Source: Kiritimatiellia bacterium (GTDB lineage: Bacteria; Verrucomicrobiota; Kiritimatiellia; RFP12; UBA1067). From it: a DNA stretch of 64,000 bases. The first letter of the stretch is position 1; every line of letters begins with the position of its first letter. The position numbers and the translations under genes are program-made. Below are positions 27,135-43,650 of this stretch, in pieces. The notes under the pieces are model-generated. The model was not told where the DNA came from. It did no database searches and saw nothing but the letters and a program-made list of their open reading frames with translations. The DNA lies in NCBI GenBank assembly GCA_024405265.1, contig JAKSOZ010000001.1:27263-91262 (forward strand). Direction: 5' to 3'.

Positions 27135-28844
27135 ATGAGCCGAAGAAAACTATCAAAGAATAAGCAGGCGGCTATTGATAAACGTTTGCTTAACGGGGCT
27201 CGGGGCAAGCTTGTGTCTTGCCTTGCACGCATTTTGCCGCAAGCAGAGAAGCTTCTGAAAAAGCCAATTAAGGAGACGCCTATTCATGACGTTTGGCTTG
27301 AACGAGAGGCGAACGAGAAGTCAACACTCGCAACGCTGCATGAAGCGTTAAGGCGTAAGCCCGTCATACAACCGCCGAAATGGGGCTTTAATCTTCAGAA
27401 GGTTGCATTGCCGGATAAAGGGGTTGTGAAGAGGTCGTATTTCTCAGGTTTGAAATGGCCGATTCTAGAACAGGCATCTGAACACGTTATTCACCTGAAA
27501 TCTGGATCGATTGGAGTGCTGGTGGTTGATCTTCGAGCAGAATCATCAGATTACCAGAGGTATACATTTGTGCGACTCACGGAAAAGAAGTCGACTTTGA
27601 TGTTGATACCAGAAGGTTGTGCATTTGCCTATTATGGACTTGCCCGATTCTCAAAGATTGAGCTCCGTGGTCGTAGTAAGGGAGAATTTCAGTTTCTAAA
27701 GGCTCTTGATGTCCTTGATCCTTCCCTAGGGATTGATCGAATAGACGGGGTGCCTACGAAAGTGTTGAATGATAATCGAAAGAGTTTCGCAAGATTCGAG
27801 ACGTTGACGCCTTGGGACTCGCGAATCAGCCATCGGGTGCTGACGCGCGGCGAACGAATGATTATTAACGCGATGGATGTCGCGAGTGATCGCGAGTATC
27901 AGATTAAACCCAAGGGGGTTGAATTTGTTTTTGATGAGTCTTGCGACCGTGGAGTGTTGCATGTTCGTGAGTATTCGGCTTTTATTCAAGTCCTCGGTAA
28001 GTTGAAATATTTATTTGCTGGCGCTGATAAGGCGCGCGGTGCAAGAATGGGAATCGCTTTCCGAGGGCAGGTTATGGGATATGGAGATCATATGATACCA
28101 TCTCTGTATCGGGGCGTTAAGACAGATAAAGAACGGAAGCGGCGTGAAAGCCATCTTTCGGAGAAGATCAAACGAGCGGTGGGGTATTTTGACCAGCTCA
28201 AGAAGTTGGATGATAGCGTTGTCGAGGCGTTGTTTCAGCAGTATGGGGTTGATACGAGTTGGATTGATGCTGTTGATAATGTGTGGATCGCTCTTTGGTT
28301 TGCTTGCCATCGAGCGGAATGTTGTCTTCAGGGGCGCTCGGTTCATTACGTGCGCCGCGATCCAAACAAAGAGTGTCCAAACGTTAGATATGCGTATATT
28401 GTGGTGTTTGGATACCCAGATTCGGTGTTGTCAGGAACCCGTAAATCTAGGCTCGGCCCTGGTCATGTTTTGAAAGACGGAGTTGAGTATATAGATCTCC
28501 GTCTGGCGGTGCCGTCTCAATTTGTACGTCCCCATGCGCAGCACGGGCTTATGCTAAGGCAATATTCGGATAAAAGGGAGCCGAAAACTGATTACCGAGA
28601 GTTGGTGCAGGCAATCATTCGTATTGATTTAGTGGATGCTCTTCGATGGTTGGGGTCCGGTGAGGCCGTTTCATTTGGGGCTTTGTTTCCACCGCCAGTA
28701 CACGACGCTGGTTTCCAAGGACTTCTTCGGATGGAGGATAGGACAAAGCTTAAGCACTCCGATATGTATTCCGAACTTAAGGTAAAAGAAGCTGGTGGGG
28801 AACATGAGTATAAGTCATTAAGTTTTCAGAGGTTTGATATATAG
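27135..28844 (+). CDS. FRG-domain protein
   Basis: FRGQ...IPSLYR signature about residue 300; 569 aa. Confidence 0.55.
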   Translation: MSRRKLSKNKQAAIDKRLLNGARGKLVSCLARILPQAEKLLKKPIKETPIHDVWLEREANEKSTLATLHEALRRKPVIQPPKWGFNLQKVALPDKGVVKRSYFSGLKWPILEQASEHVIHLKSGSIGVLVVDLRAESSDYQRYTFVRLTEKKSTLMLIPEGCAFAYYGLARFSKIELRGRSKGEFQFLKALDVLDPSLGIDRIDGVPTKVLNDNRKSFARFETLTPWDSRISHRVLTRGERMIINAMDVASDREYQIKPKGVEFVFDESCDRGVLHVREYSAFIQVLGKLKYLFAGADKARGARMGIAFRGQVMGYGDHMIPSLYRGVKTDKERKRRESHLSEKIKRAVGYFDQLKKLDDSVVEALFQQYGVDTSWIDAVDNVWIALWFACHRAECCLQGRSVHYVRRDPNKECPNVRYAYIVVFGYPDSVLSGTRKSRLGPGHVLKDGVEYIDLRLAVPSQFVRPHAQHGLMLRQYSDKREPKTDYRELVQAIIRIDLVDALRWLGSGEAVSFGALFPPPVHDAGFQGLLRMEDRTKLKHSDMYSELKVKEAGGEHEYKSLSFQRFDI

Positions 28845-28876
28845 GAGTAGCTTCGGCGCAGTTCAATGTATAGCTT

Positions 28877-30217
28877 ATGAGACGCAAAGATTTATTTTCA
28901 TTTGGCAATACGCCGGCGGAGCGCTCGGCGGCGCGGTTGTTGTTTTTGATAGGTCTAGGCTCGTCTACTCAGATTAACATCGGTGGGTATACGGCGATTT
29001 CGGAACTGCTGCTTGTTCTCTATATGCCGATTGCGATGGCGAAGAATTGGGGGCTGTTTAGGCGCGATCGGTGCACGGCAATTTTGTGGTTGCTTATCAT
29101 CTGGGGCTTAGGGCAGTTGGCAACGGATTTGTCGATTGGAAATTATTTTGCGTTCATGATTCGCGGATTGATCCCTCCTGTAGGCATCTTTGCTGCATTG
29201 ATTACAGTATATCCTTTGCTCAAGCGTAACCCAGATGGGCTCAAATGGATCCTTCTGGGGACGGCTATCTCAGGTGTTGTCTCTATCTTTGTCTTTCAGC
29301 ATGGTTCAGATATTGACACCGCAGAGGTGCGGTCAGGTGCGATGTCTGTATCAGAAGCTGTTATGGGGTATAAGTTATTCTGGGTTGGAAAGTTGAATGA
29401 GTGGCTCGCGCTACCAGTTAAAGGCTGGTATATGCATATGCCGCATGGGGGGAATGTTGTAATTGCAGCGTTTCTTGCAGTATTCGGTCTTGCTTCTGGA
29501 GGGCGATCCGCATTTCTTGTTTGTATGGTATCAACGTTGCTGTTGATGTTTGGAGGAAAGTCGAGTCGCAAAATGAGGTGGCTTAAGAAGAGTTGGCCGA
29601 TTCTGGTTGGACTTTTGATAGTATTAATTCCAATAGTTAAATTTACCTATCAATTTGCGGCTAGTAGTGGATGGATGGGGGAGGAAGAATTAGCAAAGTA
29701 TGAGGAACAATCAAAAGGTAAGAGTGGCTTAGAGACACTGATGGCAGGCAGGGCTGAGTTTTTTATCGCGCTTTCTGCTATTAAAGACAAACCATTGTTT
29801 GGACATGGGTCGCATGCTCTGGATACAGCTGGATATAAGCTAAATTTTTTCATTAAGTATGGCGCGGACGAAGAAACTTTGAAGAGAATTCAAGGAGTAG
29901 AAAAGATCTCAGGAGTTCGTACAATTCCAGCTCATTCGCATATTGCCGAGTTTTGGATGTGGGCGGGAATTCCTGGCCTTCTGCCATGGATATATATCCT
30001 CGTATTGCTGGGAAAGACTTTATTTAAAAGAATGCATATTTATCCGCCTTATTATGGATATTTCGCCCTAATCATCCCGTCGATGTTTTGGCATATCTTC
30101 TTCTCGCCGTTCGGTAGCCGCATTAATATGGCCGTGATGATTGCTGCTTGTTTGGTCGTGCAGACCATGGAGCGAGAGCAGAGACGGACGAACGGATTTA
30201 TAGCAAAGGCATGGTAA
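28877..30217 (+). CDS. O-antigen ligase/polymerase-like (Wzy/WaaL family) integral membrane protein
   Basis: about 10 TM helices with large periplasmic loop near C-terminus; context in a glycan cluster. Confidence 0.5.
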   Translation: MRRKDLFSFGNTPAERSAARLLFLIGLGSSTQINIGGYTAISELLLVLYMPIAMAKNWGLFRRDRCTAILWLLIIWGLGQLATDLSIGNYFAFMIRGLIPPVGIFAALITVYPLLKRNPDGLKWILLGTAISGVVSIFVFQHGSDIDTAEVRSGAMSVSEAVMGYKLFWVGKLNEWLALPVKGWYMHMPHGGNVVIAAFLAVFGLASGGRSAFLVCMVSTLLLMFGGKSSRKMRWLKKSWPILVGLLIVLIPIVKFTYQFAASSGWMGEEELAKYEEQSKGKSGLETLMAGRAEFFIALSAIKDKPLFGHGSHALDTAGYKLNFFIKYGADEETLKRIQGVEKISGVRTIPAHSHIAEFWMWAGIPGLLPWIYILVLLGKTLFKRMHIYPPYYGYFALIIPSMFWHIFFSPFGSRINMAVMIAACLVVQTMEREQRRTNGFIAKAW

Positions 30218-30221
30218 GATA

Positions 30222-31457
30222 ATGAAAGTCATTCTTTCAACAGGACATGGGCGACTTCATCTTGTGCAATCAGCAACTTGGTTGCGTAAGTTGGGGTTGA
30301 ATGTTAGAGTTTTAACGGGATGGATTCCGAAACATCCGGATGGATTACTAGTTAAGTTGGCCTCGAAAATTGTTCGTCGCGATTTAACTTCCGGGATGAA
30401 GAAGCGCCTTGTTCCCGAACTTGAAGGATGTGTTAGGACATGTCCTTTAGCGGAGTCTCTTGACACTCTTTTGCGAGTAGCATGTCGAATCTTAAAGATA
30501 TCTACCCATCGAGTGTCTTCGATAGGCTGGACAATCTTCGGCCTTGCGAGTCGCAAGTATCTAAAGGATGCAGACATCTTTCATTGCCGTTCAGGTGCAG
30601 GACAGGGTGGTGCGATTAAACTCGCACGGAACCGTGGGATGAAGATTTTGGTTGATCACAGTTGCCTTCATCCGGCTAAATGCGAGGAGAATCTCAAGGA
30701 TGACTACGCGCGTTGGGGGCAGGAGATTGTCATTGCTCCCGGTCGAGGCGTTTGGAAGAACGTACTTAAAGATTGCGAAGATGCTGATATGATTATGGTC
30801 AATGCGAATCATATTCGTGATTCGTTTGTTGAGCAGGGGTACGCGCCGGAGAAGGTTAGAGTTGTTTATTTGGGTGTACGGGAAGATTTTCAGGGCGTGA
30901 AGAAGAACTACGCGAGCCATGGAACTTTTAGGGTTCTTTTTACAGGTGGATTTATTATTCTTAAAGGCGCGGAGTATCTTCTCGAGTCGCTTAAGATATT
31001 GAAAGAACGTGGGGTTGATGTTGCGTATGATGTGATCGGCTCGGTCGGTGCTCCAAAAGCATTGCTCGAAAAGTATAGCAATCTTCCGTTTAAATTTTAT
31101 GGTGTTTTACCGCAAGATAATTTGAAGTCTCATCTCGCAAATGCGGATGCGTATCTCTTCCCTTCACTTGCCGATGGTTGCGCACAAAGCGGAATGGAAG
31201 CATTAACGGCGGGTCTTCCGGTTGTGGCGACTTATCAAAGCGGGCTTCCGATAACGGATGGTGAGAATGGATGTGTGGTGCCGATGAAGGATGCCATGGC
31301 AATTGCCGATAAAATCGAGTGGTTGATTGCACATCCAGAAGAGCGAGAGAGGTTGGGTAAGTCTGCTGCAAAGATGATGAGAGAAAAATATACATGGCGG
31401 CATTATGCGGAGAATGTTCGAGACCTCTACGAGGAACTTGTAGAGAGTGGGAGTTGA
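30222..31457 (+). CDS. glycosyltransferase family 4 (GT-B, group 1)
   Basis: C-terminal pattern FPSLADGCAQSGMEALTAGLPVV typical of GT4 (ExxxxxxE variant). Confidence 0.65.
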   Translation: MKVILSTGHGRLHLVQSATWLRKLGLNVRVLTGWIPKHPDGLLVKLASKIVRRDLTSGMKKRLVPELEGCVRTCPLAESLDTLLRVACRILKISTHRVSSIGWTIFGLASRKYLKDADIFHCRSGAGQGGAIKLARNRGMKILVDHSCLHPAKCEENLKDDYARWGQEIVIAPGRGVWKNVLKDCEDADMIMVNANHIRDSFVEQGYAPEKVRVVYLGVREDFQGVKKNYASHGTFRVLFTGGFIILKGAEYLLESLKILKERGVDVAYDVIGSVGAPKALLEKYSNLPFKFYGVLPQDNLKSHLANADAYLFPSLADGCAQSGMEALTAGLPVVATYQSGLPITDGENGCVVPMKDAMAIADKIEWLIAHPEERERLGKSAAKMMREKYTWRHYAENVRDLYEELVESGS

Positions 31458-31479
31458 AAGTTGGAGTGGGAGAATGGTG

Positions 31480-32547
31480 AAGAAACATTATTATTTGTTA
31501 GACGTGCTAAGAGCACTGGAAATGCTCGCAGTGGTAAGGGGCCATTATCGTAATGTGCTTTTCCCTTCATGGAGCGAGGTTGCGCATTCCTCAAGAGGGG
31601 GGGGGGTACAGCTCCTCTATGCCCTTACGAGGTGGGGGCACAGCGCTGTTATCGTCTTCTTTGTGTTGAGTGGATTTTTGGTCGGAGGTAAATCAATCGA
31701 GAGGGCCATGCGAAATCAGTTTGACATAATCGGATACGCAAAGAATCGATGCGAGCGGATTTTCCCTCCGCTTGCATTGATGTGCTTTCTTGTGCCGGTT
31801 ACGTTTCTTAGCCTTGGCGTTCCTGTACCGTGGGGTTCGGTTTTGGGTAATCTTTTTTCTTTGCAAGGACTTTGCTGCCAGTCGTTGCTCGGCCCTTGGT
31901 GGGCGCTTTCGGTTGAAGTCTGGTTCTATGTTTGGTGTGGCGCGGCGTTAGGTGCATGGCGTGCGAAGGGGGGGCTCCGATTCCTATGCGCTGGGATCCT
32001 GGCGCTAATGAGCTTCATCTTCATTCGTGGATCGATTTGGTTCTTGCTAATATGGCTACTCGGCGCGGCAACTTATTTCGTTTTGCCGCGGACGAAGAAT
32101 ATCTGGCGATTGCTGGGATCGTTTGTCGCCTGCGCGGCGCTTGCAGTCGTTGGCTCGCGAACAACAACAAACGCTCAAATTGCTGATTTCTTTTTAGGGG
32201 TTGGCTTGTGCTTGATTGTTCGCGAGGTCGTGATGTGGGAGCCGAGCGGCTTAATTTCCAGGACGGCAAATAAGCTCGGAACGTGGTTGTCTGCTCCGTC
32301 GTATTCGATTTATCTTTCTCATATGCTGGTTATGATTGTCTTTGCGAACCTGTTCTTAACTCCAGCGGCAAGTGCGACTGTGGATCGTGAGTATATGGTT
32401 CAAGAAGGAATCCTTGCTGCATTTACGAAGGTCGGTGCACTTGAAATCGGTGCATTGATTGGTTCGTTGGTGCTTGCAATTGTTTTCGGTTATCTCGTGT
32501 ATCTTGTTGCGGAAAAGCCTTGGTGGAAAAGGCGAGTGGAAGTCTGA
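31480..32547 (+). CDS. acyltransferase family 3 (O-acyltransferase) membrane protein; contains G11 tract at 31593-31603
   Basis: N-terminal LDVLRALEMLAVV and multi-TM architecture of the OafA/acyltransferase_3 family; homopolymer read directly. Confidence 0.6.
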   Translation, partial: KKHYYLLDVLRALEMLAVVRGHYRNVLFPSWSEVAHSSRGGGVQLLYALTRWGHSAVIVFFVLSGFLVGGKSIERAMRNQFDIIGYAKNRCERIFPPLALMCFLVPVTFLSLGVPVPWGSVLGNLFSLQGLCCQSLLGPWWALSVEVWFYVWCGAALGAWRAKGGLRFLCAGILALMSFIFIRGSIWFLLIWLLGAATYFVLPRTKNIWRLLGSFVACAALAVVGSRTTTNAQIADFFLGVGLCLIVREVVMWEPSGLISRTANKLGTWLSAPSYSIYLSHMLVMIVFANLFLTPAASATVDREYMVQEGILAAFTKVGALEIGALIGSLVLAIVFGYLVYLVAEKPWWKRRVEV

Positions 32548-32566
32548 AGTTGGAGTGGGAGAATAT

Positions 32567-33439
32567 ATGAATCCGATACTGTCAATTGCTATTGTCAACT
32601 TTAACTACGGCCGCTATCTGGAGGCGGCGGTTCGCTCTGTTCTTGATCAGCAGGTCGAGGGCGTGGAGTTGGTCGTTGTCGACGGCGGTTCGAAGGATAA
32701 CTCAGTAGAGGTCATCAAAAAGTACGCGGATAAGCTTGGCTGGTGGGTGAGTGAACCTGATAAGGGGCAGAGCGATGCCTTTAACAAGGCGTTTGCGCAT
32801 TGTCGCGGCAAGTATCTCACATGGCTCAATGCCGATGATATCATGCCGAAGGGGTGCCTCAAGAAGATTGTGAAAGAGTTGGTTCGTCACCCGAAGTGCG
32901 AATGGTTTACGGGGAACCTCTTTCGGTTTGTAGACAAGCTGAAAGAGGAGGTGGAGAAAATAGGTGGAGGTGGAGAGCGGACGGTTTATCCTGTTGTTGA
33001 ATGCGCATGGGGACCGAATTATTTGCCGGGGTTCTTGCAGGGCAAAGGAATGCCGATTGCGGTGTACGGCCCTGCGACGATTTTCACGAAGCGAATCTTT
33101 GATGCGGCGGGTGGCATGAAGCTTCACCAGAACTTCATGATGGACACGGATTTATGGATGCGGTTCGTGATGATGGGCGTGAAGCAGCGGCGCATCAATT
33201 GTTTCTGCTGGGCGTTTCGTATGCACGTCGATTCGAAGACGGCGGAGTTCGGCGATCACAAGCTCTCGCCCGAGCAGCGCACGAAGTTCGAAGCCGAGCG
33301 AAAGGCGTCGCATGAGGCGACGGGGTATAAGCCGAGCAAGGTGTTGGGGCGGCTGTGGCAGCTGTGGCGAATTCTCGATGGTTCGTTTGTTAAGGGGCTG
33401 TGGCTGAAGAAGATGTTTAAGCACGTGGAGGTTGTATAA
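32567..33439 (+). CDS. glycosyltransferase family 2
   Basis: LSIAIVNFNYGRYLEAAVRSVLDQ...VVDGGSKDNS...LNADD. Confidence 0.7.
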   Translation: MNPILSIAIVNFNYGRYLEAAVRSVLDQQVEGVELVVVDGGSKDNSVEVIKKYADKLGWWVSEPDKGQSDAFNKAFAHCRGKYLTWLNADDIMPKGCLKKIVKELVRHPKCEWFTGNLFRFVDKLKEEVEKIGGGGERTVYPVVECAWGPNYLPGFLQGKGMPIAVYGPATIFTKRIFDAAGGMKLHQNFMMDTDLWMRFVMMGVKQRRINCFCWAFRMHVDSKTAEFGDHKLSPEQRTKFEAERKASHEATGYKPSKVLGRLWQLWRILDGSFVKGLWLKKMFKHVEVV

Positions 33440-34821
33440 TGAGCTTTGAGGTACGCCGAGTTTCAAACGGACCAAAGCACCACCTCTTTGGATTCCACGA
33501 TCTTCCGATAACAAACGCCAGGGGGGATTTAGCGTTATCGTTGGAAGTCGACGATATATCCCACCCTCCATTGCCCGGAGAGTCTTGCGCTGCGGGAGTT
33601 ATTGATCTGGCGACTGGTGCGTTCAAGAAGCTTCACGAGACGCATACTTGGAACTATCCGCAGGGGGCGCGGCAGCAGTGGATCGGCGATACGGATCTTT
33701 GCGTGTGCAACGATCGTGCGGAGGATGGGACGCTGATCTCGCGTATCTACAACGCGCGGACGGGTGAGAAGGTTGATACGCTGCCTTTCCCCGTACAATG
33801 TGTCCAAGCGGAGAAGCAACTTGCCTTCTATCAGAACTTTGACCGTTTGCATGGAGTCGGTGGGTATGGTTATGTCGGCGGTGAATTACCAAAGAAGCTC
33901 GTTGATTTGCCGGAGGATGATGGACTTTGGGTTGGCGATCTAGAGACCAAAGAGAAGAAGCTCCTTCTTTCGATGGTTGAGATAGTGGCTTGCGGGGAGA
34001 CGAAACCGGTTAAGACCGGATATCCTCATTACATTACGCATGGCATGCTTAACCCCAGCGGTACGCGACTCGCTTTCTTGCATCAATATCGTGTTCCGGA
34101 TGGCGGTGACATCGCGCGAATCCTGGCGTGTGATTTGGACGGTAAGAATCTTCGGTGTCTCGGGAAGGGATTCTTGAGCCACTACACTTGGATTGACGAC
34201 GAAACCATCTTCACATGGGGAGAGGATCAACACGCACTATCGGCTTTTCGTGAGGCGGCATGGCTTCGCATCCCGGGCGTCCTCCAACTTGCGCTTCTCG
34301 CGAAGAAATGCATGCGCTGTGCTCGCTCACTTAAGTCACTTCTTAAACATCAAACCTCAAACATCAAGCCTCAAACTAAACCGCAAGGTAAAGCGTTCCT
34401 CCTGTTGAAGGATTGTGATCCGGTCATTCAAACGAAAGTCGCCATTGGAATTCTGACAGAAGACGGGCATCCGATGTCTAATCCGAAGAATCCGCATCTT
34501 GTTGTGAACGATACGTATCCGAATAAGGAAGGGGATCGTTGGCTCATGTTTTATGATGTAGATAAAAACGAGCGCACCAATGTCGGACAATTCCGTCGCC
34601 TTTTCAAGGAGCCGGATGTTAAGACATTCGACTGGCGAAAGTCGATGGAGGGTGTCGATCCTCGGGTTTGTGCGAAATTTCCTCGCGACCTTTATCTCTT
34701 TACGCGTTCCGGTTACCATACAGACCTCCACCCCCGCTGGTCGTACGACGGCAAGACGGCCTTTTTTGACTCTATTCACGAAGGGACTCGACAGATTTAT
34801 GCGGTTGACTATTCATGCTGA
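33439..34821 (+). CDS. hypothetical protein (possibly beta-propeller); contains in-frame short tandem repeat block 34337-34385
   Basis: 460-aa ORF; no confident motif. Confidence 0.4.
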   Translation: MSFEVRRVSNGPKHHLFGFHDLPITNARGDLALSLEVDDISHPPLPGESCAAGVIDLATGAFKKLHETHTWNYPQGARQQWIGDTDLCVCNDRAEDGTLISRIYNARTGEKVDTLPFPVQCVQAEKQLAFYQNFDRLHGVGGYGYVGGELPKKLVDLPEDDGLWVGDLETKEKKLLLSMVEIVACGETKPVKTGYPHYITHGMLNPSGTRLAFLHQYRVPDGGDIARILACDLDGKNLRCLGKGFLSHYTWIDDETIFTWGEDQHALSAFREAAWLRIPGVLQLALLAKKCMRCARSLKSLLKHQTSNIKPQTKPQGKAFLLLKDCDPVIQTKVAIGILTEDGHPMSNPKNPHLVVNDTYPNKEGDRWLMFYDVDKNERTNVGQFRRLFKEPDVKTFDWRKSMEGVDPRVCAKFPRDLYLFTRSGYHTDLHPRWSYDGKTAFFDSIHEGTRQIYAVDYSC

Positions 34822-35515
34822 TGATTTCGGTATCAGCGAAAGTGTAAGTCGCTGCATCGCCGAATGCTTTGCCAAGGGCTGGGTCAATGAGACCAGTCTG
34901 ATGGTGAATATGCCGTACGCGGATAAAGCCGTTGAGCTTGCGCGGCAGAACGGCTTTGTCGGGAAGGTCGGACTTCATCTTAACCTCTCGCAAGGTATGC
35001 CGCTTACCGAGAAGATCAAATCGTGTCCTCGCTTCTGCAATGAGGATGGAACTTTCAACAAGAAGTTTCATCATATGACGAAGACGCGTTTCGTAATTAC
35101 TAAAGCGGAACAGGATGCGGTGCGCGAGGAAGTCGAAGCGCAACTTGCGAAGTTCGTGAAGTATGATGGAGTTCTTAAGAAACTCGACTCGCATCATCAT
35201 GTGCATACGGATTGGTCGGTCTATCGCTTGCTTGAACCGCTCGCACTTAAGTATGGTATTCGTGCGATGCGAATCAGTGCAACCTTGCACAAGGTAGGAC
35301 TCGTGAAAGAGCTGTACAAGCGCTATCTGAATCGACGCATTCGTAAGCACTTCGTGACGACGGCCGAGTTTGATGGATTCAATGCGAATCTTGTTGCAGC
35401 TACCAAACACGGCCAAGATGTTGAACTGATGGTACATCCGATGTATGCGGAATCCGGAGAGATTGTTGATGCCAAGCGTCCGTACAATGAATTGATGGAG
35501 GCGATCAATGGCTAA
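34799..35515 (+). CDS. YdjC/ChbG-family carbohydrate deacetylase
   Basis: start MRLTIHADDFGIS matches the YdjC N-terminal motif (hADDFG); 239 aa. Confidence 0.55.
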   Translation: MRLTIHADDFGISESVSRCIAECFAKGWVNETSLMVNMPYADKAVELARQNGFVGKVGLHLNLSQGMPLTEKIKSCPRFCNEDGTFNKKFHHMTKTRFVITKAEQDAVREEVEAQLAKFVKYDGVLKKLDSHHHVHTDWSVYRLLEPLALKYGIRAMRISATLHKVGLVKELYKRYLNRRIRKHFVTTAEFDGFNANLVAATKHGQDVELMVHPMYAESGEIVDAKRPYNELMEAING

Positions 35516-36629
35516 GATCCGAATTTTTCAGCCGATTGTCCCGGAGTATCGCGTCGCGCTTTTTGAAGGCGTGGGGAAGCGGTATGGCGCTGATGTCGAG
35601 ATCTGGGCTTCGGAGGGCGCCGGGCAGGACAAGTCGTATACGCTAAAATCGATGCGTTACGATTATAACCATCCCTTTAAGAACTTTGGGCCGATTCGTT
35701 GGCAGAAGAGACTGTCTTTGAAGGGCCTCAATAAGGGCGATGTGATTGTCATTTGTGGCGATGTGCATCAGCTCTCGTCGCTTTGGATTGCCGCGCTTGC
35801 GAAACTGCGCGGAATCGGCGTCGTATGGTGGGGCCATCACGTTTCGGTTGGCTCGAAAGAACTCGGCGTTCGTATTCGCCTATTCTTGACGCGGCTTTTG
35901 TCGAATGTCGTGCTTTGCTACACCAAGCAGGGCATCGAATGGTTTAAGGCTCGCGGATGGAAATCACCTGTCTTTGCAACCGGCAATACGATTGATATGG
36001 AGGCAGTTAAGGCGGCGCTTGCCGCATGGACTCCGGAGAAGCTCACGGCGTTTCAGCGCGAGCGGGGGCTCGAGAATCAAGAGGCGATTGTCTTCTGCTC
36101 GGTGCTGCGCTGGAAGACACGTCTTGATCAACTCCTCAAGGCCATGGCGTCTGATGCGCTCAATAAGCGCGGCACGAAGCTTATCGTGATTGGCGATGGC
36201 GAGGGACGCGCGACATGGGAGCAACAAGCAAAAGATCTCGGAATCTCTGATCGCATCATTTGGGTTGGCGCATTGCGCGAGCAGATGAAGATCGCGCCGT
36301 GGTTCTTGAGCGCGAAGGCCTATGTTTATCCAGGGCCGATTGGGCTCAGTATCATTCACGCATTCTCTTACGGGCTTCCGGTTGTCTGCCACGACACCGC
36401 CGCGCATCATGGCCCCGAGTTCGAGGCGATGACTGATGGAGAGACTGGATTGGTTTTCAAGGAGAATGATGCCGACGACTTGGCGCGGCAAATCGTACGG
36501 TTGCTTGAGAACGAATCCGAACGACGCACGATGTCAACGCGTGTTCAAGAATTGGCCTATTCCAAGTACGGCATCGAATCGATGGTGAATAACTACTGTG
36601 AAGCGCTGGAGGCGGCGAAAGACGCATGA
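35508..36629 (+). CDS. glycosyltransferase family 4
   Basis: GT-B architecture; C-terminal motif region (YVYPGPIGLSIIHAFSYGLPVV). Confidence 0.6.
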   Translation: MAKIRIFQPIVPEYRVALFEGVGKRYGADVEIWASEGAGQDKSYTLKSMRYDYNHPFKNFGPIRWQKRLSLKGLNKGDVIVICGDVHQLSSLWIAALAKLRGIGVVWWGHHVSVGSKELGVRIRLFLTRLLSNVVLCYTKQGIEWFKARGWKSPVFATGNTIDMEAVKAALAAWTPEKLTAFQRERGLENQEAIVFCSVLRWKTRLDQLLKAMASDALNKRGTKLIVIGDGEGRATWEQQAKDLGISDRIIWVGALREQMKIAPWFLSAKAYVYPGPIGLSIIHAFSYGLPVVCHDTAAHHGPEFEAMTDGETGLVFKENDADDLARQIVRLLENESERRTMSTRVQELAYSKYGIESMVNNYCEALEAAKDA

Positions 36630-37573
36630 TTACGCTTTTTCAATATTATCGCATTGCGGCGGCGTTTCTGATTGTGATGATTCATCAGCAATTCTGGAAG
36701 CCGTGCGCTTTCATCAACGGACTTGAGGGCTGTGCTGTGCCGCTCTTTGCTTGCATGGCCGGTTACCTCTACAAGGGAGGCCTCCTCAAGAAAGTGCCGC
36801 GGGTCATCATCCCGTACCTTATCTGGGCGGTCATTTACTTCGTAGCGAACAATGTTGTTCTTGATGTGTTCGTTCGCCACGAGTCCTTTGAGTTCCCAGG
36901 CCTGAAGTCTTGGCTACTCGGTGGTACGGCGTGTCACCTTTGGTTCCTACCGAGTCTGTTCGCGGCGTTTGCCGCGGCAGAGGGTTTGATGCGTGTGAGA
37001 TGTTTGAGGGGTTCCGAACCCACTAACCCACTAACCTCAATAACCCCTAACCTCATCCTTCTTGCTTTAGGAATTGCGTCACAGTGGCTCCCCGGCGAGA
37101 CTTCGGAAACTTTCCTCGGTTACTGCCGCATCTACTTCGGTCGACTCCTCCTCTTCTTCTCCCTTGGCGGTTTGATTCGAACACTAACATCAAACATCAA
37201 ACATCAAACCTCAAACTTGCCACGCATAACTATCAAAATAATGGGGGGGGGCGCAATTATGCTCGGTTTGGCTAATCTTGCGCTTCGTTTCATCCCCGGC
37301 CTTGCATTTCAGCCGCTTCTTCTCATAATCGGCTTGATGCTTTTGGCGGTCGGCTTCGGCGAGTTTACTCTCCCGAAGTTTGTCGGAAATCTCGCCAATG
37401 CGACGATGGGTATCTACCTTGTTCATGTTCTCTTTACCTCCGCTGCAAATGTGGTCCTGGCGAAGCTTGGACACGCGGCATTACCGGCATTTGCCGCCTT
37501 GCCTATTATCGCAGGTATTTTCCTTTGTTGCTATTTCGTCGTACGATTCATGCCGAAGAGGATGAAAGGATAA
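36626..37573 (+). CDS. acyltransferase-3-like membrane protein carrying two repeat blocks and a G9 tract (37243-37251)
   Basis: multi-TM; repeats 37019-37055 and 37186-37222 and the homopolymer are read directly. Confidence 0.5.
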   Translation: MITLFQYYRIAAAFLIVMIHQQFWKPCAFINGLEGCAVPLFACMAGYLYKGGLLKKVPRVIIPYLIWAVIYFVANNVVLDVFVRHESFEFPGLKSWLLGGTACHLWFLPSLFAAFAAAEGLMRVRCLRGSEPTNPLTSITPNLILLALGIASQWLPGETSETFLGYCRIYFGRLLLFFSLGGLIRTLTSNIKHQTSNLPRITIKIMGGGAIMLGLANLALRFIPGLAFQPLLLIIGLMLLAVGFGEFTLPKFVGNLANATMGIYLVHVLFTSAANVVLAKLGHAALPAFAALPIIAGIFLCCYFVVRFMPKRMKG

Positions 37574-37578
37574 TACAT

Positions 37579-38655
37579 ATGTCCGATCGTAATCAATCGT
37601 TAGACGCAGCTCGTTGCGTGATGAACTATATGATTGTCATTCTTCATGCATGGGCGGTGTTTCAGTATGTGAAGTGGGATACGATTGAATTCATATCTTG
37701 GACTGTTATTTGCTCGCACCTGATGTGGCTTGCGATACCGGCGTTCTTTATGATCAGCGGGTATTTGCTCTTTCAAAAGTTCTCGCTTGCGAGTTGGCCG
37801 AACAAAATGGTGCGCCGCGTGAAGCGATTGGCGGTTCCGTATTTTGCGTGGAATATCTTCTTCGTCGCCTTTTACTTGGCGCTCGCGCATTTTGTGCCGC
37901 GGCTTGGGACGCGCGTCGCTTCGTTCGGGCTCGACACGATTGGTGGAGCAATTTCGAAGATCGCAAGTCTCACGGTTGCGCCGATTGACGGACCGCTTTG
38001 GTTCTTGCGCGTGTTGTTTCTCTTCGCGCTCGTTTCGCCGATTCTGTGGTGGTTGATGTGCTTTGCGAGGGGATGGGCGCTTTTCGGAGCTACGGTTGTT
38101 TGGTGCGTCGTAGAAGGAATGTTAGGTATTGCCGAGCCTCTTCATCTAACGGCTCCTGCGTATGCGCTTTCGTGTTTCGTCTTAGGTGGCGTTTTGGCAC
38201 GCAATGAAAAGGATTTGGTCTCGACTTTCAAGCATTGGGGGTGGTTTGCCATTGGACTCGCCGCATGCTTGATTCGTGCCGCAATTTCCATACCTCGCCT
38301 TGGCGTACATTCAGATACAAACGCGGCGATCAGTATCATTCTCTCGCTTCTGGCGATTCTTGAGGCGCCGGCGCTTATTTCGCTCGTGAGTCACATTCGT
38401 ACGGAAGGCGTTGTGAAGAGCCGCGTCTACGGATTTCTGAAGGAGATGTCTTTCTTCGCGTATGCTGGGCACTTTCTCTTTTGTTCGATGTGGCTTCATA
38501 CCGCGGCACCTTTGCTTTCCGGAATGGGGGGGGGTAAGATGACGCTTTTGATTTTGATCTTTGTCGGTTGTGGTATTCCGACAATGGCACTAGTGTATTG
38601 GCTCGGCAAGCGGATATGTCCTCGAGCGATGAAAATCTTTGATGGGACTTTGTGA
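37579..38655 (+). CDS. acyltransferase family 3 membrane protein; G9 tract at 38526-38534
   Basis: multi-TM, acyltransferase_3-like N-terminus (LDAARCVMNYMIVILH). Confidence 0.6.
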   Translation: MSDRNQSLDAARCVMNYMIVILHAWAVFQYVKWDTIEFISWTVICSHLMWLAIPAFFMISGYLLFQKFSLASWPNKMVRRVKRLAVPYFAWNIFFVAFYLALAHFVPRLGTRVASFGLDTIGGAISKIASLTVAPIDGPLWFLRVLFLFALVSPILWWLMCFARGWALFGATVVWCVVEGMLGIAEPLHLTAPAYALSCFVLGGVLARNEKDLVSTFKHWGWFAIGLAACLIRAAISIPRLGVHSDTNAAISIILSLLAILEAPALISLVSHIRTEGVVKSRVYGFLKEMSFFAYAGHFLFCSMWLHTAAPLLSGMGGGKMTLLILIFVGCGIPTMALVYWLGKRICPRAMKIFDGTL

Positions 38656-38657
38656 TC

Positions 38658-39788
38658 ATGAAGATACTTCACGTCATAACCGGTATGAAGAAAGCGGCGG
38701 GGACGAGCGTTTTCGCCGGAGAGGTGACGAATGAACTCGTCGCGCAAGGGCATGAGGTTGCAATTGCCGTTGCAGATCCCAAGTGCGACGATTGCTACAA
38801 GCTCGATCCGCGCGTGAGGCTAATTGGTTTTGGCGAGGTCGTAGTTGCTGATTATGACATCGTTCATATTCATGCGCTCTGGTCGCCGATTCTTTCGAGG
38901 ATTGCAAGGACAGCGCGTAAGGCAGGCGTGAAAGTTGTGTGGTCACCTCACGGAATGCTCACCCCGTGGGCGCTCAAGAACAAGTGGTGGAAGAAACTTC
39001 TTGGACTTGTTCTCTATCAATATTGGGCGCTTCGGAATGCCGACCTAATTCATGTCACCGCGCAGAGCGAAGTCGAAGATGTAAGGAGACTCGGGCTGAA
39101 GAACGAGGTGGTGGTAGCGCCGTTGGGAGTAAGGGTTAGCCGTGTAGAACGTATAGAACGTGTAGAAAAGAAAGAGAAGACGCTTCTGTTCGTGTCGAGA
39201 GTTCAGCGGAAGAAGGGGTTGCCGAATCTATTGGACGCGTGGGCGAGATTGCCGGAGGAGTTGAAGAACGATTGGACGATTAGAATCGTCGGTCCGGATC
39301 AGGATAATCATACCGCAGAGCTTAAGGAGCTCTGCGAGAAGTTGAAGATCAAAGTCGAAGTCGAAGTGCAGTTCGTCGGGCCTAAGTATGATGAGGAACT
39401 GGATTGGGAGTACAGGAACTCTGATCTTTTCGTATTGCCTACGCATTCCGAGAACTTCGGTTCTGTGGTTATTGAGGCGCTCGCGCGCGGCGTGCCGGTT
39501 ATCTGCACGAAGGAGGCCCCTTGGGAAGAACTCGAGACGCATAAGTGCGGTTGGTGGATTGATGATAACGTCGATGCTTTAGAAGCGGCATTGCGAGATG
39601 GATTAAGCCGTGTAGAACGTGGAGAACATGTAGAAATGGGGAAGAAAGGATTGGAGCTTGTAAAGTCCAAATACGATTGGAAGGTTATCGGTAAGACTAT
39701 CGCCGATGCCTATTGGAAGATTTCGCACGGATGCGAAAAGGGTCGTTGCGTTAATTGCGCTGAGTTGTACGACACGTGTAGTCCGTAA
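38658..39788 (+). CDS. glycosyltransferase family 4
   Basis: MKILHVITGMKKAAGTSVFAGEV...; C-terminal GT4 motif region; internal 9-nt repeats (SRVERIERVE / SRVERGEHVE). Confidence 0.65.
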   Translation: MKILHVITGMKKAAGTSVFAGEVTNELVAQGHEVAIAVADPKCDDCYKLDPRVRLIGFGEVVVADYDIVHIHALWSPILSRIARTARKAGVKVVWSPHGMLTPWALKNKWWKKLLGLVLYQYWALRNADLIHVTAQSEVEDVRRLGLKNEVVVAPLGVRVSRVERIERVEKKEKTLLFVSRVQRKKGLPNLLDAWARLPEELKNDWTIRIVGPDQDNHTAELKELCEKLKIKVEVEVQFVGPKYDEELDWEYRNSDLFVLPTHSENFGSVVIEALARGVPVICTKEAPWEELETHKCGWWIDDNVDALEAALRDGLSRVERGEHVEMGKKGLELVKSKYDWKVIGKTIADAYWKISHGCEKGRCVNCAELYDTCSP

Positions 39789-39847
39789 GGGCAGCTTAAT
39801 AAAGAAAACGCCGAGGAAGGGGATTAGCCCAACCGCGGCGAATTTTT

Positions 39848-39949
39848 TTATAGGTCGCCGAAGATTAGTTTGAGCGTGGCGTGCTTGATGACCTCGAGCA
39901 AGACCTGAAAGATGATGGCCTTGATTGCGGATTGAAGGTTCTTCTTCAT
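39848..39949 (-). CDS. candidate 33-aa amphipathic peptide MKKNLQSAIKAIIFQVLLEVIKHATLKLIFGDL
   Basis: GGAG 9 nt upstream of ATG on minus strand; lies between convergent genes next to a GC hairpin/T-run; below ORF-table size cutoff. Confidence 0.25.
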   Translation of the reverse strand: MKKNLQSAIKAIIFQVLLEVIKHATLKLIFGDL

Positions 39950-40109
39950 AGTTAGATTCTCCTTTCGTATGCGGCTTCATTACCGCTGCATATTGCCGAA
40001 GCGACAAATCTAACTATGGCCGGTCATTCAAACGGCAAGAAAATCTGCCGCGTTTTTGTGTAAGGGGGTTGGAGATACAACGCGAAAAATGGTATAATAT
40101 TGTTAAATT

Positions 40110-41495
40110 ATGATTGGCGGATTGACCCAAATGATTCAGCTGGTAACTTCTGAAGAGCTCCTTGTCGAGCTCTTCGAAGCTTATGCCCCCGCGTTGAAGA
40201 TTAAAGAGCTCGGTTTGACCGCCGATCCGGAAGAACGAGCGCAATGTATTTTTAAGGCGATGGAACAACTCGTCTTGGTTAATCCGGCCGAACATAGCGC
40301 AATTTTCAAAGTCCTCAACACTATTGCAGTCGTCAATAGCGATCCGGCGAATCATAAGGTTATAGTCGATTATTTGAAATATAATTTTGCGTTGAAGAAG
40401 GTTTACGATTCGCTTCATTATGCCGCGACCTTCAGCAAACGTCGCCCGATTGCCGCAATGGCAGCCTTTATCGCCATACAGTGCAAGAGCGGAAACGATG
40501 TTGTTCGCGGCGAGGCTCTCAAACTTTGGGATGCCTTTATAGTCGAATGTTCGAAGGTTGCGCAAGGGAACTTCCTCCGTAAAAACATTACCCCGCCAAG
40601 CAAAGGAGCGGTTGAGCGCGCACGAGGGCTTAAGGACTTCCAAAGTGAACTCGAAAACTATGTCCGCCTTCAGAGTCAACAAAAGGACTACATCGCATTT
40701 GTCGTTCCGAATCAAACAACTAGCGGTTATACGCGCTATTACGTCAACACTTCTCCGCCGGAGCGTGACGTCCTTCAAGTGAAGAAGGGCAAAAGCGGTA
40801 TGGGTAAGGACATCAATATGACCGGGTTTGAAATCCGTCATTATTATGTCACCGACCGCGTTTGGATATCCGAGACGAAAACCGGAGACCAAGCCTACAT
40901 TCTCGATCTGTTCTTAAAGAATGTTCTCGGTTCCACGATTGATCGTCGCCATCGGGTTCACTGTGAGCACCGTCTACCTGTTTTTCGCTCAAAGGATCGT
41001 TTCTTGCGCGAGATTACACTGCCGATAGAGCTTTCTCGGAATCATGAAAAGGTTTATCTTTCTCAATTAAAGATTGTCGTCGCCGAACGGCATTCCGATT
41101 TGGTACTGGAAGGGGATGGTGAAGGCGTTTATATGCCCGTAACATACGAAGGCACGGAGTATGTATCGATTCACGATCAAATCGCCAAGATTCAGCAGCG
41201 AAAATTTCCGAGTGAACTTTGGACGATTTCCTATGCCGAGGTCGTCGCACTTCTTCATCCGTACATCTACGATAAAGAGACGAATGAGCCGGTCGGGCGT
41301 TCTTCTGAATTTACGAAGGTGACGTTTCCGGTCAAACCAGGCGGATGTACACCTCGTTTTGAGGCACGTCATAAGCTCGACCAAAAGCTACGAGAGGATG
41401 CGCTGATGTTGCGTGCGCGATGGGAGTTGGATGGCGTTAATGACGAGACATTCTACTTGGGTATGACCGAGGCCCAACGCAATGGTGGAATCTAA
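40110..41495 (+). CDS. hypothetical protein (461 aa)
   Basis: TGGTATAATAT 40092-40102 then 8 nt then ATG; no motif; antisense ORF 40014..40892 judged spurious. Confidence 0.5.
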   Translation: MIGGLTQMIQLVTSEELLVELFEAYAPALKIKELGLTADPEERAQCIFKAMEQLVLVNPAEHSAIFKVLNTIAVVNSDPANHKVIVDYLKYNFALKKVYDSLHYAATFSKRRPIAAMAAFIAIQCKSGNDVVRGEALKLWDAFIVECSKVAQGNFLRKNITPPSKGAVERARGLKDFQSELENYVRLQSQQKDYIAFVVPNQTTSGYTRYYVNTSPPERDVLQVKKGKSGMGKDINMTGFEIRHYYVTDRVWISETKTGDQAYILDLFLKNVLGSTIDRRHRVHCEHRLPVFRSKDRFLREITLPIELSRNHEKVYLSQLKIVVAERHSDLVLEGDGEGVYMPVTYEGTEYVSIHDQIAKIQQRKFPSELWTISYAEVVALLHPYIYDKETNEPVGRSSEFTKVTFPVKPGGCTPRFEARHKLDQKLREDALMLRARWELDGVNDETFYLGMTEAQRNGGI

Positions 41496-42036
41496 TTATA
41501 ATGTCGAGTGCCCGAGATATCGGCTTGAATGTGATATCGAGTCTTGCCCTCGTTATCTGACGCGTTGTGTCATTGATATAGATGAGGAGTCAGGCGAACT
41601 TGTGGCATCGGGATTTTGTCATGAACGAGGGATTAAATTCTTTCCTTCTATCCCAAATAACAAGATATCGATTAAGACGATTTCGGAGCAACACGCCGAG
41701 CAACGAACTAAAGGTTTTTGCGAGTTCTCAGGTACAGAAGTTAATTCGAAGATAGATATTGATCCGGGTGTAAGCGTAACCGTCAATTTTCATAAACATT
41801 CTTTTACGGCCGGAAAGCCGTGGGAAATCTTCAATCGATTCTTTCGCTCAATTAAAGCGGGCGATGACCATTCTGATAAACATTATCCCGTTCCATTTAC
41901 GACTTCGGATTACAACCAATTGAAGGACGATGCGTTGGCGCTTTTCGACAAATATTGCGAGCGGCAGCCGGCGATTGAGCGTAAGGGCAATAAGCAATTT
42001 GAGCCGTATGCTAGGTTCAAATTAGAACTGCTTTAG
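41482..42036 (+). CDS. Cys-rich hypothetical protein (CPRY x2 near N-terminus)
   Basis: overlaps previous stop by 14 nt (operon); followed by terminator. Confidence 0.5.
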   Translation: MVESNYNVECPRYRLECDIESCPRYLTRCVIDIDEESGELVASGFCHERGIKFFPSIPNNKISIKTISEQHAEQRTKGFCEFSGTEVNSKIDIDPGVSVTVNFHKHSFTAGKPWEIFNRFFRSIKAGDDHSDKHYPVPFTTSDYNQLKDDALALFDKYCERQPAIERKGNKQFEPYARFKLELL

Positions 42037-42072
42037 GTAGAAATTTAGTTTAGATTAGAAATTTATTTTAAG

Positions 42073-42108
42073 CCGTAGAAGTGCAAACTTCTGCGGCTTT
42101 TTCTTTTA
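42073..42108 (+). terminator. rho-independent terminator GCCGTAGAAGT-GCAA-ACTTCTGCGGC + TTTTTCTTTT
   Basis: read directly. Confidence 0.65.
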
Positions 42109-42290
42109 TTCTGCGCATTTTTGCCGCACAAATCCCACGTTTAGTTTACTTTGGGATTTGAATTAATTACTTTACTTGGGAAAAATGATTTAATAATCGC
42201 GCACAAAGGGCTAATTAGCTCGGTTCGGCGCGAAGATAAGTCATCTTTCGGAATGCGGCTATTCCTTTGTGCTAAACAAAGGAAAGAGCC

Positions 42291-42494
42291 ATGACTAAAA
42301 AGTTCATTGCGGCGCATGTCGCCGAGTTCAAGGGTAAGAAGGAAGTTGTCGATTTCATTTGGAATCGACTTTGTTGGGGTGCGAGCATCTCGTCCGCTGT
42401 AGTGGAGGCGATGGAAGAGTTCGAGCTCATCAAGGTGGGTGAGATTCTTCGGCCTATTCGTCCCTCGTTTTCCGATGGTCGGATCGCCGGTTAA
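42291..42494 (+). CDS. small hypothetical protein (67 aa)
   Basis: AAAGGAAAGAG upstream of ATG; begins the GC-richer block. Confidence 0.35.
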   Translation: MTKKFIAAHVAEFKGKKEVVDFIWNRLCWGASISSAVVEAMEEFELIKVGEILRPIRPSFSDGRIAG

Positions 42495-42510
42495 GAAAGG
42501 AGGTTCGACC

Positions 42511-43119
42511 ATGGAAAACACGAATCTCCCGGAGGTGAATCTCGATGCGCTCGCGGCGGAATTGCCTGCGGCGTTTCAGGGACATTGGATCGCCGATGTC
42601 GTAAGGGCTTTTGGCGGCGCGCGCGCCATGGTGAGCGACGAGGAATTGCTCGATTATTGGCAGGAGGCGGTCGTGAGAGCCATGAGGGCTCTCACGGAGT
42701 TGGAGGGACAAGTGGAAGTTGGAGATGGAATGCGGGTCGCGTATGTGAAACGGGCGGTGAGGAGCTTACTGACAGACTTGAATCGAAAATACGATGTCAG
42801 GTCGGAAGTGGTTAGTGGGCAGTGTGGAGTGGTTAGTGAGGAGGAAGACGAGGTTGATCTCGTTGAGAAGGCGGAGAGTTCGGCGTTCGAGCTAAAGAAT
42901 CGCAAGCGAATCGACGACTTTCATGTTGCGCTGAAGTTGGTGGAGGACGATCCGAAGTGCCGCGCGTATTGGGAGGCGTATGTGCGAACGGATGGGTCGG
43001 ATCGTGCGGTCGGGAAGCGGCTCGGGCTTTCGCATACGGCGGTCAGGAAGTATTATCGGCTCCCGTTCTTTAAGGCGTTCAAGGAAGCGTGGGAATTGGT
43101 AAAGGTTGTTAGGGGGTGA
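42511..43119 (+). CDS. sigma-70 region-4-like HTH protein (possible alternative sigma/antiterminator-type regulator)
   Basis: C-terminal GKRLGLSHTAVRKYYRL helix-turn-helix; strong GAAAGGAGG RBS. Confidence 0.4.
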   Translation: MENTNLPEVNLDALAAELPAAFQGHWIADVVRAFGGARAMVSDEELLDYWQEAVVRAMRALTELEGQVEVGDGMRVAYVKRAVRSLLTDLNRKYDVRSEVVSGQCGVVSEEEDEVDLVEKAESSAFELKNRKRIDDFHVALKLVEDDPKCRAYWEAYVRTDGSDRAVGKRLGLSHTAVRKYYRLPFFKAFKEAWELVKVVRG

Positions 43120-43122
43120 GTT

Positions 43123-43395
43123 ATGAAGAAAAGAAGTAGCAGATCGGAGAGGACACGGCTTTGGCAGATGATGAACGCGGCGCTTGACGATGCTGAGCGG
43201 CTATTCTCCGGGACGAAAGTCGACCGCGCCATTTGGGCGCGGATCGCCTGGCGAGTCGGACTTGAGAACTTTCTCGACGCGATCTTTCAGGCCGAGGCGG
43301 AGGCGAGAGATAGGAATAAGCGCATCCCGAGCTCCCAACTCCCGCGCTTCTTTCAGTCAGTTCTCAACCGGAGATTTCCGAAACGTGAGAGTTGA
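43123..43395 (+). CDS. small basic hypothetical protein
   Basis: overlaps previous stop (GTGAGTTATG). Confidence 0.35.
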   Translation: MKKRSSRSERTRLWQMMNAALDDAERLFSGTKVDRAIWARIAWRVGLENFLDAIFQAEAEARDRNKRIPSSQLPRFFQSVLNRRFPKRES

Positions 43396-43609
43396 AGAAA
43401 GCGGAAGGAAAGAGAAGGTTTCCCCTCTTGACTCCCCTATAAGAGAAATGAAGGGTAAAGAATTAAGCCAGAGCAAGTAATTGCTCATGTCTTTCGCGCG
43501 CGTGACGCGCACGCAGGACGCATGTGCGAGGCAAGATTTGTGAAAATTCCCGTTTCCAAATCGCAAAGCTGAAACGAATAGTATAGGCAGCTGGACGAAG
43601 CGCTCGCGC

Positions 43610-43650
43610 TAAGTGATTAGTGCTTAGTGGTTAGTGCTTAGTCTTCGAAT
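43610..43650 (+). repeat. tandem TTAGTG(C/G) repeats GTGATTAGTGCTTAGTGGTTAGTGCTTAGT
   Basis: read directly; related GTGATAAGTG palindrome at 46226-46330. Confidence 0.6.

Follow-up and report, generated by a model that had tools for sequence, protein, structure and literature searches.

The pglI gene of Neisseria encodes a phase-variable O-acetyltransferase of the pilin glycan and carries a genic poly-G tract of G9-15 (PMC5953494, PMC9558356); it is the closest experimentally established case for the genes described here. In Campylobacter jejuni, a poly-G phasome extends over the capsule, lipooligosaccharide (LOS) and flagellar-glycan loci (PMC6321876). For Akkermansia muciniphila, the acyltransferase gene Amuc_2098, with a (C)10 tract, and the capsule gene Amuc_1413, with a (G)8 tract, were proposed from the genome to be phase variable (PMC3048395). 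Phase variation is also described for oafA, the LOS O-acetylase gene of Haemophilus influenzae, and, by an epigenetic route, for oafB of Salmonella (PMC9558356). Here we examined three acyltransferase-3 (AT3) genes, named AT3-1, AT3-2 and AT3-3, that each contain a long homopolymeric G tract and lie in a surface-glycan gene cluster of a Kiritimatiellia bacterium. The DNA analyzed, referred to throughout as the window, is a stretch of 64,000 nt (assembly GCA_024405265.1, contig JAKSOZ010000001.1, positions 27,263 to 91,262 of the forward strand). We consider it probable that the G tracts act as slipped-strand contingency loci for O-acylation of a surface glycan, and we infer both the reversibility and the rate of this switching. 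A literature search combining Kiritimatiell* with phase variation found no paper.

By direct counting of homopolymers, AT3-1 (31474..32547, + strand, 357 aa, with a second opening of the open reading frame (ORF) at GTG 31447) carries a G10 tract at 31597..31606, immediately preceded by AGA. AT3-2 (36626..37573, + strand, 315 aa) and AT3-3 (37579..38655, + strand, 358 aa) carry G9 tracts at 37243..37251 and 38526..38534, respectively. An earlier note on this DNA had given both G9 tracts exactly, while its G11 at 31593-31603 for AT3-1 was off by one base in length and by 3-4 nt in position. The note was also right that all three tracts, which lie on the + strand, are in frame, each being read as GGG codons for Gly-Gly-Gly. 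In AT3-1 the tract takes up codons 42-45, which places it after the catalytic His24; in AT3-2 it takes up codons 206-209, within the predicted helix 197-220; and in AT3-3 it takes up codons 316-319, where the last hydrophobic helix begins. Besides these three tracts, the window has no G or C run of at least eight, and its longest C run is shorter than six. The lengths of the G runs are bimodal (31 G5, two G6, one G7, no G8, two G9 and one G10), with the additional G7 located within AT3-1 at 31968-31974. The three runs of at least nine compare with analytic expectations of 0.41 for independent and identically distributed bases and of 0.05-0.16 for Markov orders 1-4, and all fall in AT3 genes, which cover ~5% of the window. 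For each of the three genes, a change of one base in tract length, in either direction, leads to a premature stop.

Homologues of AT3-1 with 82-99% identity were found on five other contigs, and the tract was measured as the spacing between the conserved flanking sequences CATTCCTCA and TACAGC. The gene is in frame with a spacing of 13 nt in the window (AGA+G10) and in L003 (G13), and with a spacing of 10 nt in L001 (AGA+G7) and L004 (G10). It is frameshifted, with a spacing of 9 nt, in L002, which has a G9 tract, and in L005, which has a G10 tract and one missing flank base (TTCTC replaces CCTCA). The AT3-1 protein predicted from L002 has a foreign N-terminus, and that predicted from L005 starts only at Met78. 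For the window gene, the calculated products are 64 aa long with G9 and 72 aa long with G11. In addition, a cluster of seven AT3-1 sequences at 90% identity (from JGI, Logan and SRC) included N-termini translated from each of the two wrong frames, with MCFSLRGAMFRIPQGGV... for one and M/VGRCFAFLRGGV... for the other, indicating that the +1 and the -1 state both exist in the AT3-1 lineage. The tracts are also almost the only indels between near-identical strains. Across 7,224 aligned nt of the window and L001, which are 98.9% identical, we counted 64 substitutions and two indels, one of 15 nt at window position 26550 and the 3-nt G10/G7 difference in the AT3-1 tract, which is the only coding indel.

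For AT3-2, the intact gene with a G9 tract was found in L004, L087, L088, L089, L093 and L094, for seven independent loci in all; L086, also with G9, represents the window strain itself and was therefore not counted as independent. A G10 tract is present in L090, L091 and L092, where the protein stops right past the tract (GGGRNYAR.G*), and the same cut is seen in protein P0193. For the window gene, the calculated effect of G10 is a 216-aa product ending in GGGRNYARFG*, and that of G8 a product of 233 aa. When the G10 of L090, L091 and L092 was reset to G9, stop-free ORFs of 310-324 aa were restored, so the tract is the sole lesion in these OFF alleles. Two pairs of OFF and ON proteins (P0193/P0259 and P0194/P0260) each fall within one 90% cluster, and 4 of 19 close protein homologues of AT3-2 are cut off exactly at the tract. 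The contigs L087 and L092, 98% identical in AT3-2, differ at the AT3-2 tract, at a heptamer array and at the tract of the neighboring AT3 paralogue (G10 and intact versus G9 and split). Between L087 and L088 there are no substitutions in 10,050 nt, and the sole difference is at the G tract beside the end of the L088 contig. By an AlphaFold model, a protein made from G10 lacks helices 8-10 as well as half of helix 7. Taken with the recurrent intact and frameshifted AT3-1 alleles, these comparisons firmly support the reading of the AT3-1 and AT3-2 tracts as hypermutable ON/OFF tracts.

The two hydrophilic loops of AT3-2 are themselves encoded by short repeats, in which a change of one unit would shift the frame. 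An octanucleotide repeat (AACCCACT) x 4.5 at 37017..37052 (+ strand) codes for one loop and differs in copy number in L004. A heptanucleotide repeat (AACATCA) x 4.4 at 37186..37216 (+ strand) codes for the loop at residues 189-196 (SNIKHQTS), just before helix 197-220; three AACATCA heptamers, read through all three frames, give NIKHQTS. In the AT3-2 orthologues we found other heptamers or copy numbers, for example (AAACCTC) x 7 or more in L091 and TTATCAT-type units. Heptamers were also noted in intergenic DNA. At window 46228-46326, an inverted pair is made up of AAGTGAT x 3.7 and the reverse complement of this unit, ATCACTT x 4.9; the pair closely precedes a small ORF (46348-46482) for a 44-aa hydrophobic peptide. 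The ATCACTT unit recurs in L004 and L087, within the AT3-2 loop. A further intergenic array, GCTTAGT x 5 at 43608-43642, lies upstream of an ORF at 43675. A heptamer-like stretch in the ORF at 33439-34821 was considered as a switch and rejected, as the orthologues differ by substitution and not by length.

Long G tracts were also frequent in related loci. In twelve related glycan loci (129 kb), there are 21 G runs of at least nine, all on the coding strand, or ~16 per 100 kb. Other genes with such runs are two further AT3 paralogues, a hexapeptide acetyltransferase, a polysaccharide deacetylase, a Wzy-like gene and one ORF without assignment. As a control, the neighborhoods of a PaaK-like gene in 80 related genomes gave 4 runs in 494 kb, two of them artefacts, which is less than 1 per 100 kb. 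The resulting ~20-fold enrichment of tracts in glycan-modifying genes is partly inflated, because the related glycan loci were retrieved by homology to the tract-bearing genes. One of the real runs in the control DNA, G13 at 1534-1546 of L009, from another gut Kiritimatiellia genome, is again in an AT3 gene; this gene is frameshifted and has purN on one side and the PaaK-like gene on the other, which suggests that AT3 genes outside glycan clusters are targets as well.

These data bear on the possibility that the tracts are a mutational hot spot without adaptive switching, with the runs being by-products of conserved Gly-Gly-Gly and the OFF alleles one-way pseudogenes of dispensable glycan genes. 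We regard this as unlikely. Gly207 and Gly208 of AT3-2 are indeed conserved in the wider family, the + strand of the window is G-rich (27.4% G versus 20.7% C), and the glycan loci of the lineage are highly mosaic, so that gene loss is common. However, only 20% of the Gly codons in the window genes are GGG, and the AT3-2 tract is uninterrupted in genes with 59-86% nucleotide identity, unbroken at synonymous sites where selection against mutability would favor GGA, GGC or GGT. Further, the OFF alleles carry no second lesion, and ON and OFF alleles recur in several separate allele lineages as well as inside single 90% clusters. The tract enrichment in glycan-modifying genes also argues against a simple hot spot. 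A point that does fit the hot-spot explanation comes from AT3-3, whose tract is not conserved and can be traced to one substitution in a G-rich Gly stretch.

Several points, in addition to the inflated enrichment, weigh against contingency loci as the explanation. The G9 tract of AT3-3 was found in the window strain alone, no OFF allele or length variant was seen among the orthologues compared, and a DNA-pattern scan of JGI metagenome contigs with the AT3-3 tract flanks found nothing. The OFF alleles of AT3-1 and AT3-2 may be pseudogenes that have become fixed in the strains concerned. Searches of the cluster with Pfam and NCBIfam profiles revealed neither a flippase nor an initiating transferase, and the putative surface location, substrate and acyl group are assigned from protein family and gene context. 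For AT3-3, orthologues with at least 88% identity have interrupted runs at the tract site (ATGGGAGGGGGT in L087-L089, ATGGGGGCGGGT in L093 and ATAGTGGCGGGA in L094), and distant homologues have xG-K there. One substitution thus made the AT3-3 run or, alternatively, broke it in the others. When GTDB species genomes were scanned with a protein pattern from AT3-3, no relative was found. A shift of +/-1 would be disruptive, since the frame is closed within two codons (G10 gives an immediate TAA and a 319-aa product, and G8 a product of 320 aa) and the last helix and the conserved FDGTL end are lost. Given that no OFF allele was seen, however, the tract is only potentially mutable, and because the G9 arose recently from an interrupted G-rich stretch of Gly codons, it would have switching potential only, making AT3-3 a weak candidate for a slippage switch. 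The slipped-strand switches put forward in the earlier note thus hold up for AT3-1 and AT3-2, with their length variants, -1 and +1 frameshift alleles and a tract that is the sole lesion, and are only a potential for AT3-3. Likewise, the comparison of tract lengths between strains, suggested there as a check, gave variation for AT3-1 (7, 9, 10 and 13) and AT3-2 (9 and 10) and none for AT3-3.

Homopolymers are prone to error, and the tract lengths with their +/-1 differences might be mistakes of short reads or of the consensus. Clear artefacts do occur elsewhere, as for the C28 (4527-4554) and C27 (4610-4636) runs beside an N stretch in L038, which come from assembly or scaffolding. Two Logan contigs also end in or beside the G tract of an AT3 paralogue (L005 with 11470-11479 at its end and L088 with 1-38 at its start); these breaks suggest length heterogeneity at the read level or, equally well, low coverage. 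We nevertheless consider an artefact extremely improbable. An independent assembly of the window strain has tract lengths identical to those of the window, and the tract and its codon position are shared by at least 12 contigs of differing samples, assemblers and archives, which counters the assembly artefact that the earlier note had named as a refuting case. A contig assembled from run SRR17543907 matches window 32949-43513 with 100% identity, and a strain is likewise shared between samples such as SRR21576147, SRR21576082 and SRR21576100. The seven independent AT3-2 loci agree on G9. In addition, the in-frame steps of 3 nt (G7, G10 and G13) are not the type of error expected, and the tract codes for conserved glycines.

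The sequence surrounding the AT3-2 tract is unusually conserved. A block of ~42 nt (37235..37276, + strand) is invariant at the nucleotide level; it contains an in-frame ATG at 37259-37261 and ends at the stop of the OFF (+1) frame, TAA at 37273-37275. Seven consecutive four-fold degenerate sites in the block are unchanged in genes that are 59-86% identical, compared with 3 of 55 elsewhere, and 16% of four-fold sites are invariant overall. The block may reflect a dual-frame constraint or gene conversion. We also considered a recombination junction at which N- and C-terminal halves would be shuffled; the identities of the two halves correlate (r = 0.83) and few pairs are discordant, giving this idea no clear support. 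A DNA-pattern scan of JGI metagenome contigs with the conserved AT3-2 block found nothing. We also noted that TA (as TAA, TAC or TAT) follows G runs of at least eight in 10 of 15 distinct contexts, or 8-9 of 12-13 non-orthologous sites, compared with 3-5% for G4-G7 runs in the same DNA, and that five long tracts start inside an in-frame ATG.

These features could mean that the shifted state is not null. The G run, resembling a Shine-Dalgarno (SD) sequence, and a nearby in-frame ATG would then lead to an acyltransferase that is made in two pieces or cut short and whose activity is residual or altered. Alternatively, slippage on the run during transcription or translation would rescue part of the full-length protein. 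An ATG in the original frame is found 2-7 nt past several tracts (G9-CGCAATT-ATG in AT3-2, G9-TAAG-ATG in AT3-3 and G10-TA-ATG in AT3-x), the OFF allele of AT3-x in L092 has a TAATG overlap of stop and start, and gene callers predict the downstream pieces. The frequent TA after the tracts fits as well, as does the synonymous invariance of the AT3-2 block up to the OFF-frame stop, which a dual-frame constraint predicts, but the block may instead be due to gene conversion. Moreover, AT3-2 would be split inside the predicted helix 7, an unlikely functional break, the AT3-1 OFF products of 64-72 aa have no suitable restart, and slippage rescue is documented mainly for A/T runs, which counts against it here. 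We judge this alternative to be very unlikely. A related and broader idea is that gut Kiritimatiellia have a lineage-wide, AT3-centered phasome with its own sequence grammar, in which tracts would toggle two enzyme forms via a predicted SD-like re-initiation. The grammar may consist of coding-strand G tracts, TA after the tract, a tract start within an in-frame ATG, an invariant block up to the stop of the shifted frame, and heptamers or octamers in loops. We view a phasome of this kind as quite unlikely.

The three tract-bearing ORFs, taken in the earlier note for O-acyltransferase-type membrane proteins, do belong to the AT3 family. All scored above the gathering score of 31 bits for PF01757 (Acyl_transf_3), with 68.5 bits for AT3-1 (E 6.9e-19), 63.4 bits for AT3-2 (E 2.4e-17) and 85.2 bits for AT3-3 (E 5.6e-24), and the matches span profile positions ~2-324 of 326. 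At 315-358 aa, the proteins have no room for an SGNH domain and therefore have an AT3-only architecture. No specific NCBIfam equivalog was found for the AT3 genes. Identical NCBI proteins are MCQ2367439.1 for AT3-1, MCQ2367444.1 for AT3-2 and MCQ2367445.1 for AT3-3, the latter two annotated as 'MAG: acyltransferase [Kiritimatiellae bacterium]' in assembly GCA_024500545.1 (MAG, metagenome-assembled genome). A phage-borne, serotype-converting origin was considered and rejected, as none of the three genes has relatives in IMG/VR.

Members of the AT3 family have an R/K-X10-H motif with essential Arg and His residues in transmembrane helix 1, and unfused O-antigen acetyltransferases have FFXISG and, in loop 2-3, RXXR motifs, without absolute conservation (PMC7448272). 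The R/K-X10-H motif is present in all three proteins (R13...H24 in AT3-1, R9...H20 in AT3-2 and R12...H23 in AT3-3). We also found FFVLSG and RCER in AT3-1 and FFMISG and RVKR in AT3-3; in AT3-2, the first of these motifs is reduced to a degenerate LFACMAG, and RXXR is missing from the proper place. Helices of AT3-1 and AT3-3 were judged from hydropathy, and a fold model was used for AT3-2. This AlphaFold (AF2) model, based on 61 homologues, has ten long helices, with a predicted local distance difference test (pLDDT) score of 91.6 and a predicted template modeling (pTM) score of 0.90. Its top fold matches in the PDB were HGSNAT (probability 0.97-0.99, template modeling (TM) score 0.44-0.51) and GWT1, both of which have been placed in the TmAT superfamily alongside the AT3 proteins (PMC12423673).

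The surface-glycan cluster that holds the AT3 genes spans 27135..39788 on the + strand. Its other members are an FRG/RmlC-like gene (27135-28844), Wzy_C (28877-30217), glycosyltransferase family 4 (GT4) genes at 30222-31457, 35508-36629 and 38652-39788, a glycosyltransferase family 2 (GT2) gene (32567-33439), a beta-propeller-like ORF with no assigned function (33439-34821) and YdjC (34799-35515). The Wzy-like gene, the GT2 and GT4 genes and the YdjC deacetylase described as neighbors in the earlier note were recovered as Wzy_C, one GT2, three GT4 genes and YdjC. The gene order is kept, with variable content, in L001, L003, L004, L087, L092, L093 and L094. A 17-nt direct repeat in the SD region, AGTTGGAGTGGGAGAAT, is present in two exact copies on the + strand, the first (31459..31475) preceding AT3-1 and the second (32548-32564) preceding the GT2 gene that follows; 0.01 such exact repeats are expected by chance. 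AT3-1 is thus bracketed like an insertable or excisable cassette.

Given the AT3 family and the Wzy/GT4/GT2/YdjC context, the three proteins are predicted to transfer acyl groups to an extracytoplasmic polysaccharide. In the contingency-locus model, a G run would gain or lose one base by slipped-strand mispairing during replication, shifting the AT3 reading frame and truncating the protein, and a further slip would bring the frame back. The truncation would leave ~64-72 aa of AT3-1 and would cost AT3-2 half of helix 7 and all of helices 8-10, and AT3-3 its last helix and conserved C-terminus. When ON, each AT3 protein would pass an acyl group (probably acetyl) through the membrane and attach it at a single position of the polysaccharide that the Wzy, GT4 and GT2 proteins make. 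Three independent switches could thus give up to eight O-acylation patterns in a clonal population. A plausible benefit would be escape from phages that use the glycan as receptor and from host antibody.

To our knowledge, phase variation by homopolymer slippage has been documented almost entirely in cultured pathogens, and the switches studied in gut commensals are mainly invertible promoters and methylation. Our data indicate pathogen-style slippage, centered on polysaccharide O-acylation, in abundant uncultured gut Kiritimatiellia of humans and herbivores. Phase variation of the simple sequence repeat type would thereby be extended to an uncultured gut lineage, with a mechanism that is already known and without a new principle. 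This bears on phage-host and antibody-microbe interactions in the gut. In the annotation of MAGs, AT3 genes that are split or called 'pseudogenes' at a G tract probably represent switch states and not errors, and for strain-level metagenomics, the tracts are fast-evolving markers.

Other parts of the window provide further context. A defence island lies around the glycan cluster, at window 7396-24689 and 51072-54873, with MADS-like genes (a MAD6-like kinase, a MAD2 methyltransferase and a MAD5 specificity subunit), DUF4238, an AIPR abortive-infection protein, a KAP NTPase, and a radical-SAM/SPASM gene adjoining an SNF2 helicase. The KAP-family P-loop NTPase gene is broken into two ORFs (25130-26465, with the junction at 25709). 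In L001, ~97 extra bases at this junction give one intact 476-aa gene, indicating a frameshifting deletion in the window copy. Dozens of gut Kiritimatiellia MAGs encode proteins with 82-89% identity to the PaaK-like ligase at 936-2225; the hosts of these MAGs are humans (Hadza, Nepal), yak, sheep, goat, roe deer and horse. Contigs with a PaaK-like gene of 84-89% identity have also been deposited as Barnesiella intestinihominis, Gemmiger, Faecalibacterium sp. CAG:74, Clostridium sp. and Lachnospiraceae (L007, L008, L009, L012, L040, L048, L054 and L057, of the H07xxx-L1_cleanbin series), and are probably from mislabelled or contaminated bins.

Compared with the known systems, the locus is closest to Neisseria pglI in that G tracts of the same length range lie within genes for AT3-family O-acyltransferases that modify a surface glycan (a predicted role here), with ON/OFF states set by frameshift. 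As in Neisseria, repeats are present in neighboring glycan genes, and the CAAACAT-type heptamers in the AT3-2 loop resemble the pglE heptamer CAAACAC. Whereas pglI, from a beta-proteobacterial pathogen, is an AT3-SGNH fusion with a protein-linked glycan as substrate, the genes studied here encode stand-alone AT3 proteins in a Wzy-type polysaccharide cluster, and the switching shown experimentally for pglI is here a prediction from sequence comparison. Like the putative switches here, oafA and oafB concern AT3 O-acetyltransferases, in their case of LPS/LOS (LPS, lipopolysaccharide), whose expression is switched stochastically, with acetylation changing phage and immune recognition. Neither has an intragenic G homopolymer, however; the oafA switch is a tetranucleotide repeat, and oafB uses Dam/OxyR-type promoter methylation. 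With Campylobacter jejuni the locus shares G tracts of at least eight that crowd genes for surface-glycan modification, several switches per locus, lengths that vary between strains and a combinatorial surface. Campylobacter jejuni belongs to another phylum, has a GC content of ~30% versus 48% here, and has tracts validated by colony and read-level assays; its targets are O-methyl phosphoramidate (MeOPN) or methyl transferases, whereas those here are mostly AT3 acyltransferases. The earlier note called three switches in one 7-kb block striking, which was overstated, given that several poly-G genes per glycan locus are normal in Campylobacter and Neisseria and that the Akkermansia (C)10 tract is a precedent. 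Akkermansia muciniphila is also a gut bacterium of the Planctomycetes-Verrucomicrobia-Chlamydiae (PVC) superphylum with a G/C tract in a capsule-linked acyltransferase gene, recognized in silico. That proposal came from one genome with no allele comparison, in contrast to the Kiritimatiellia loci, for which ON and OFF alleles come from many samples and tracts in glycan loci are far denser.

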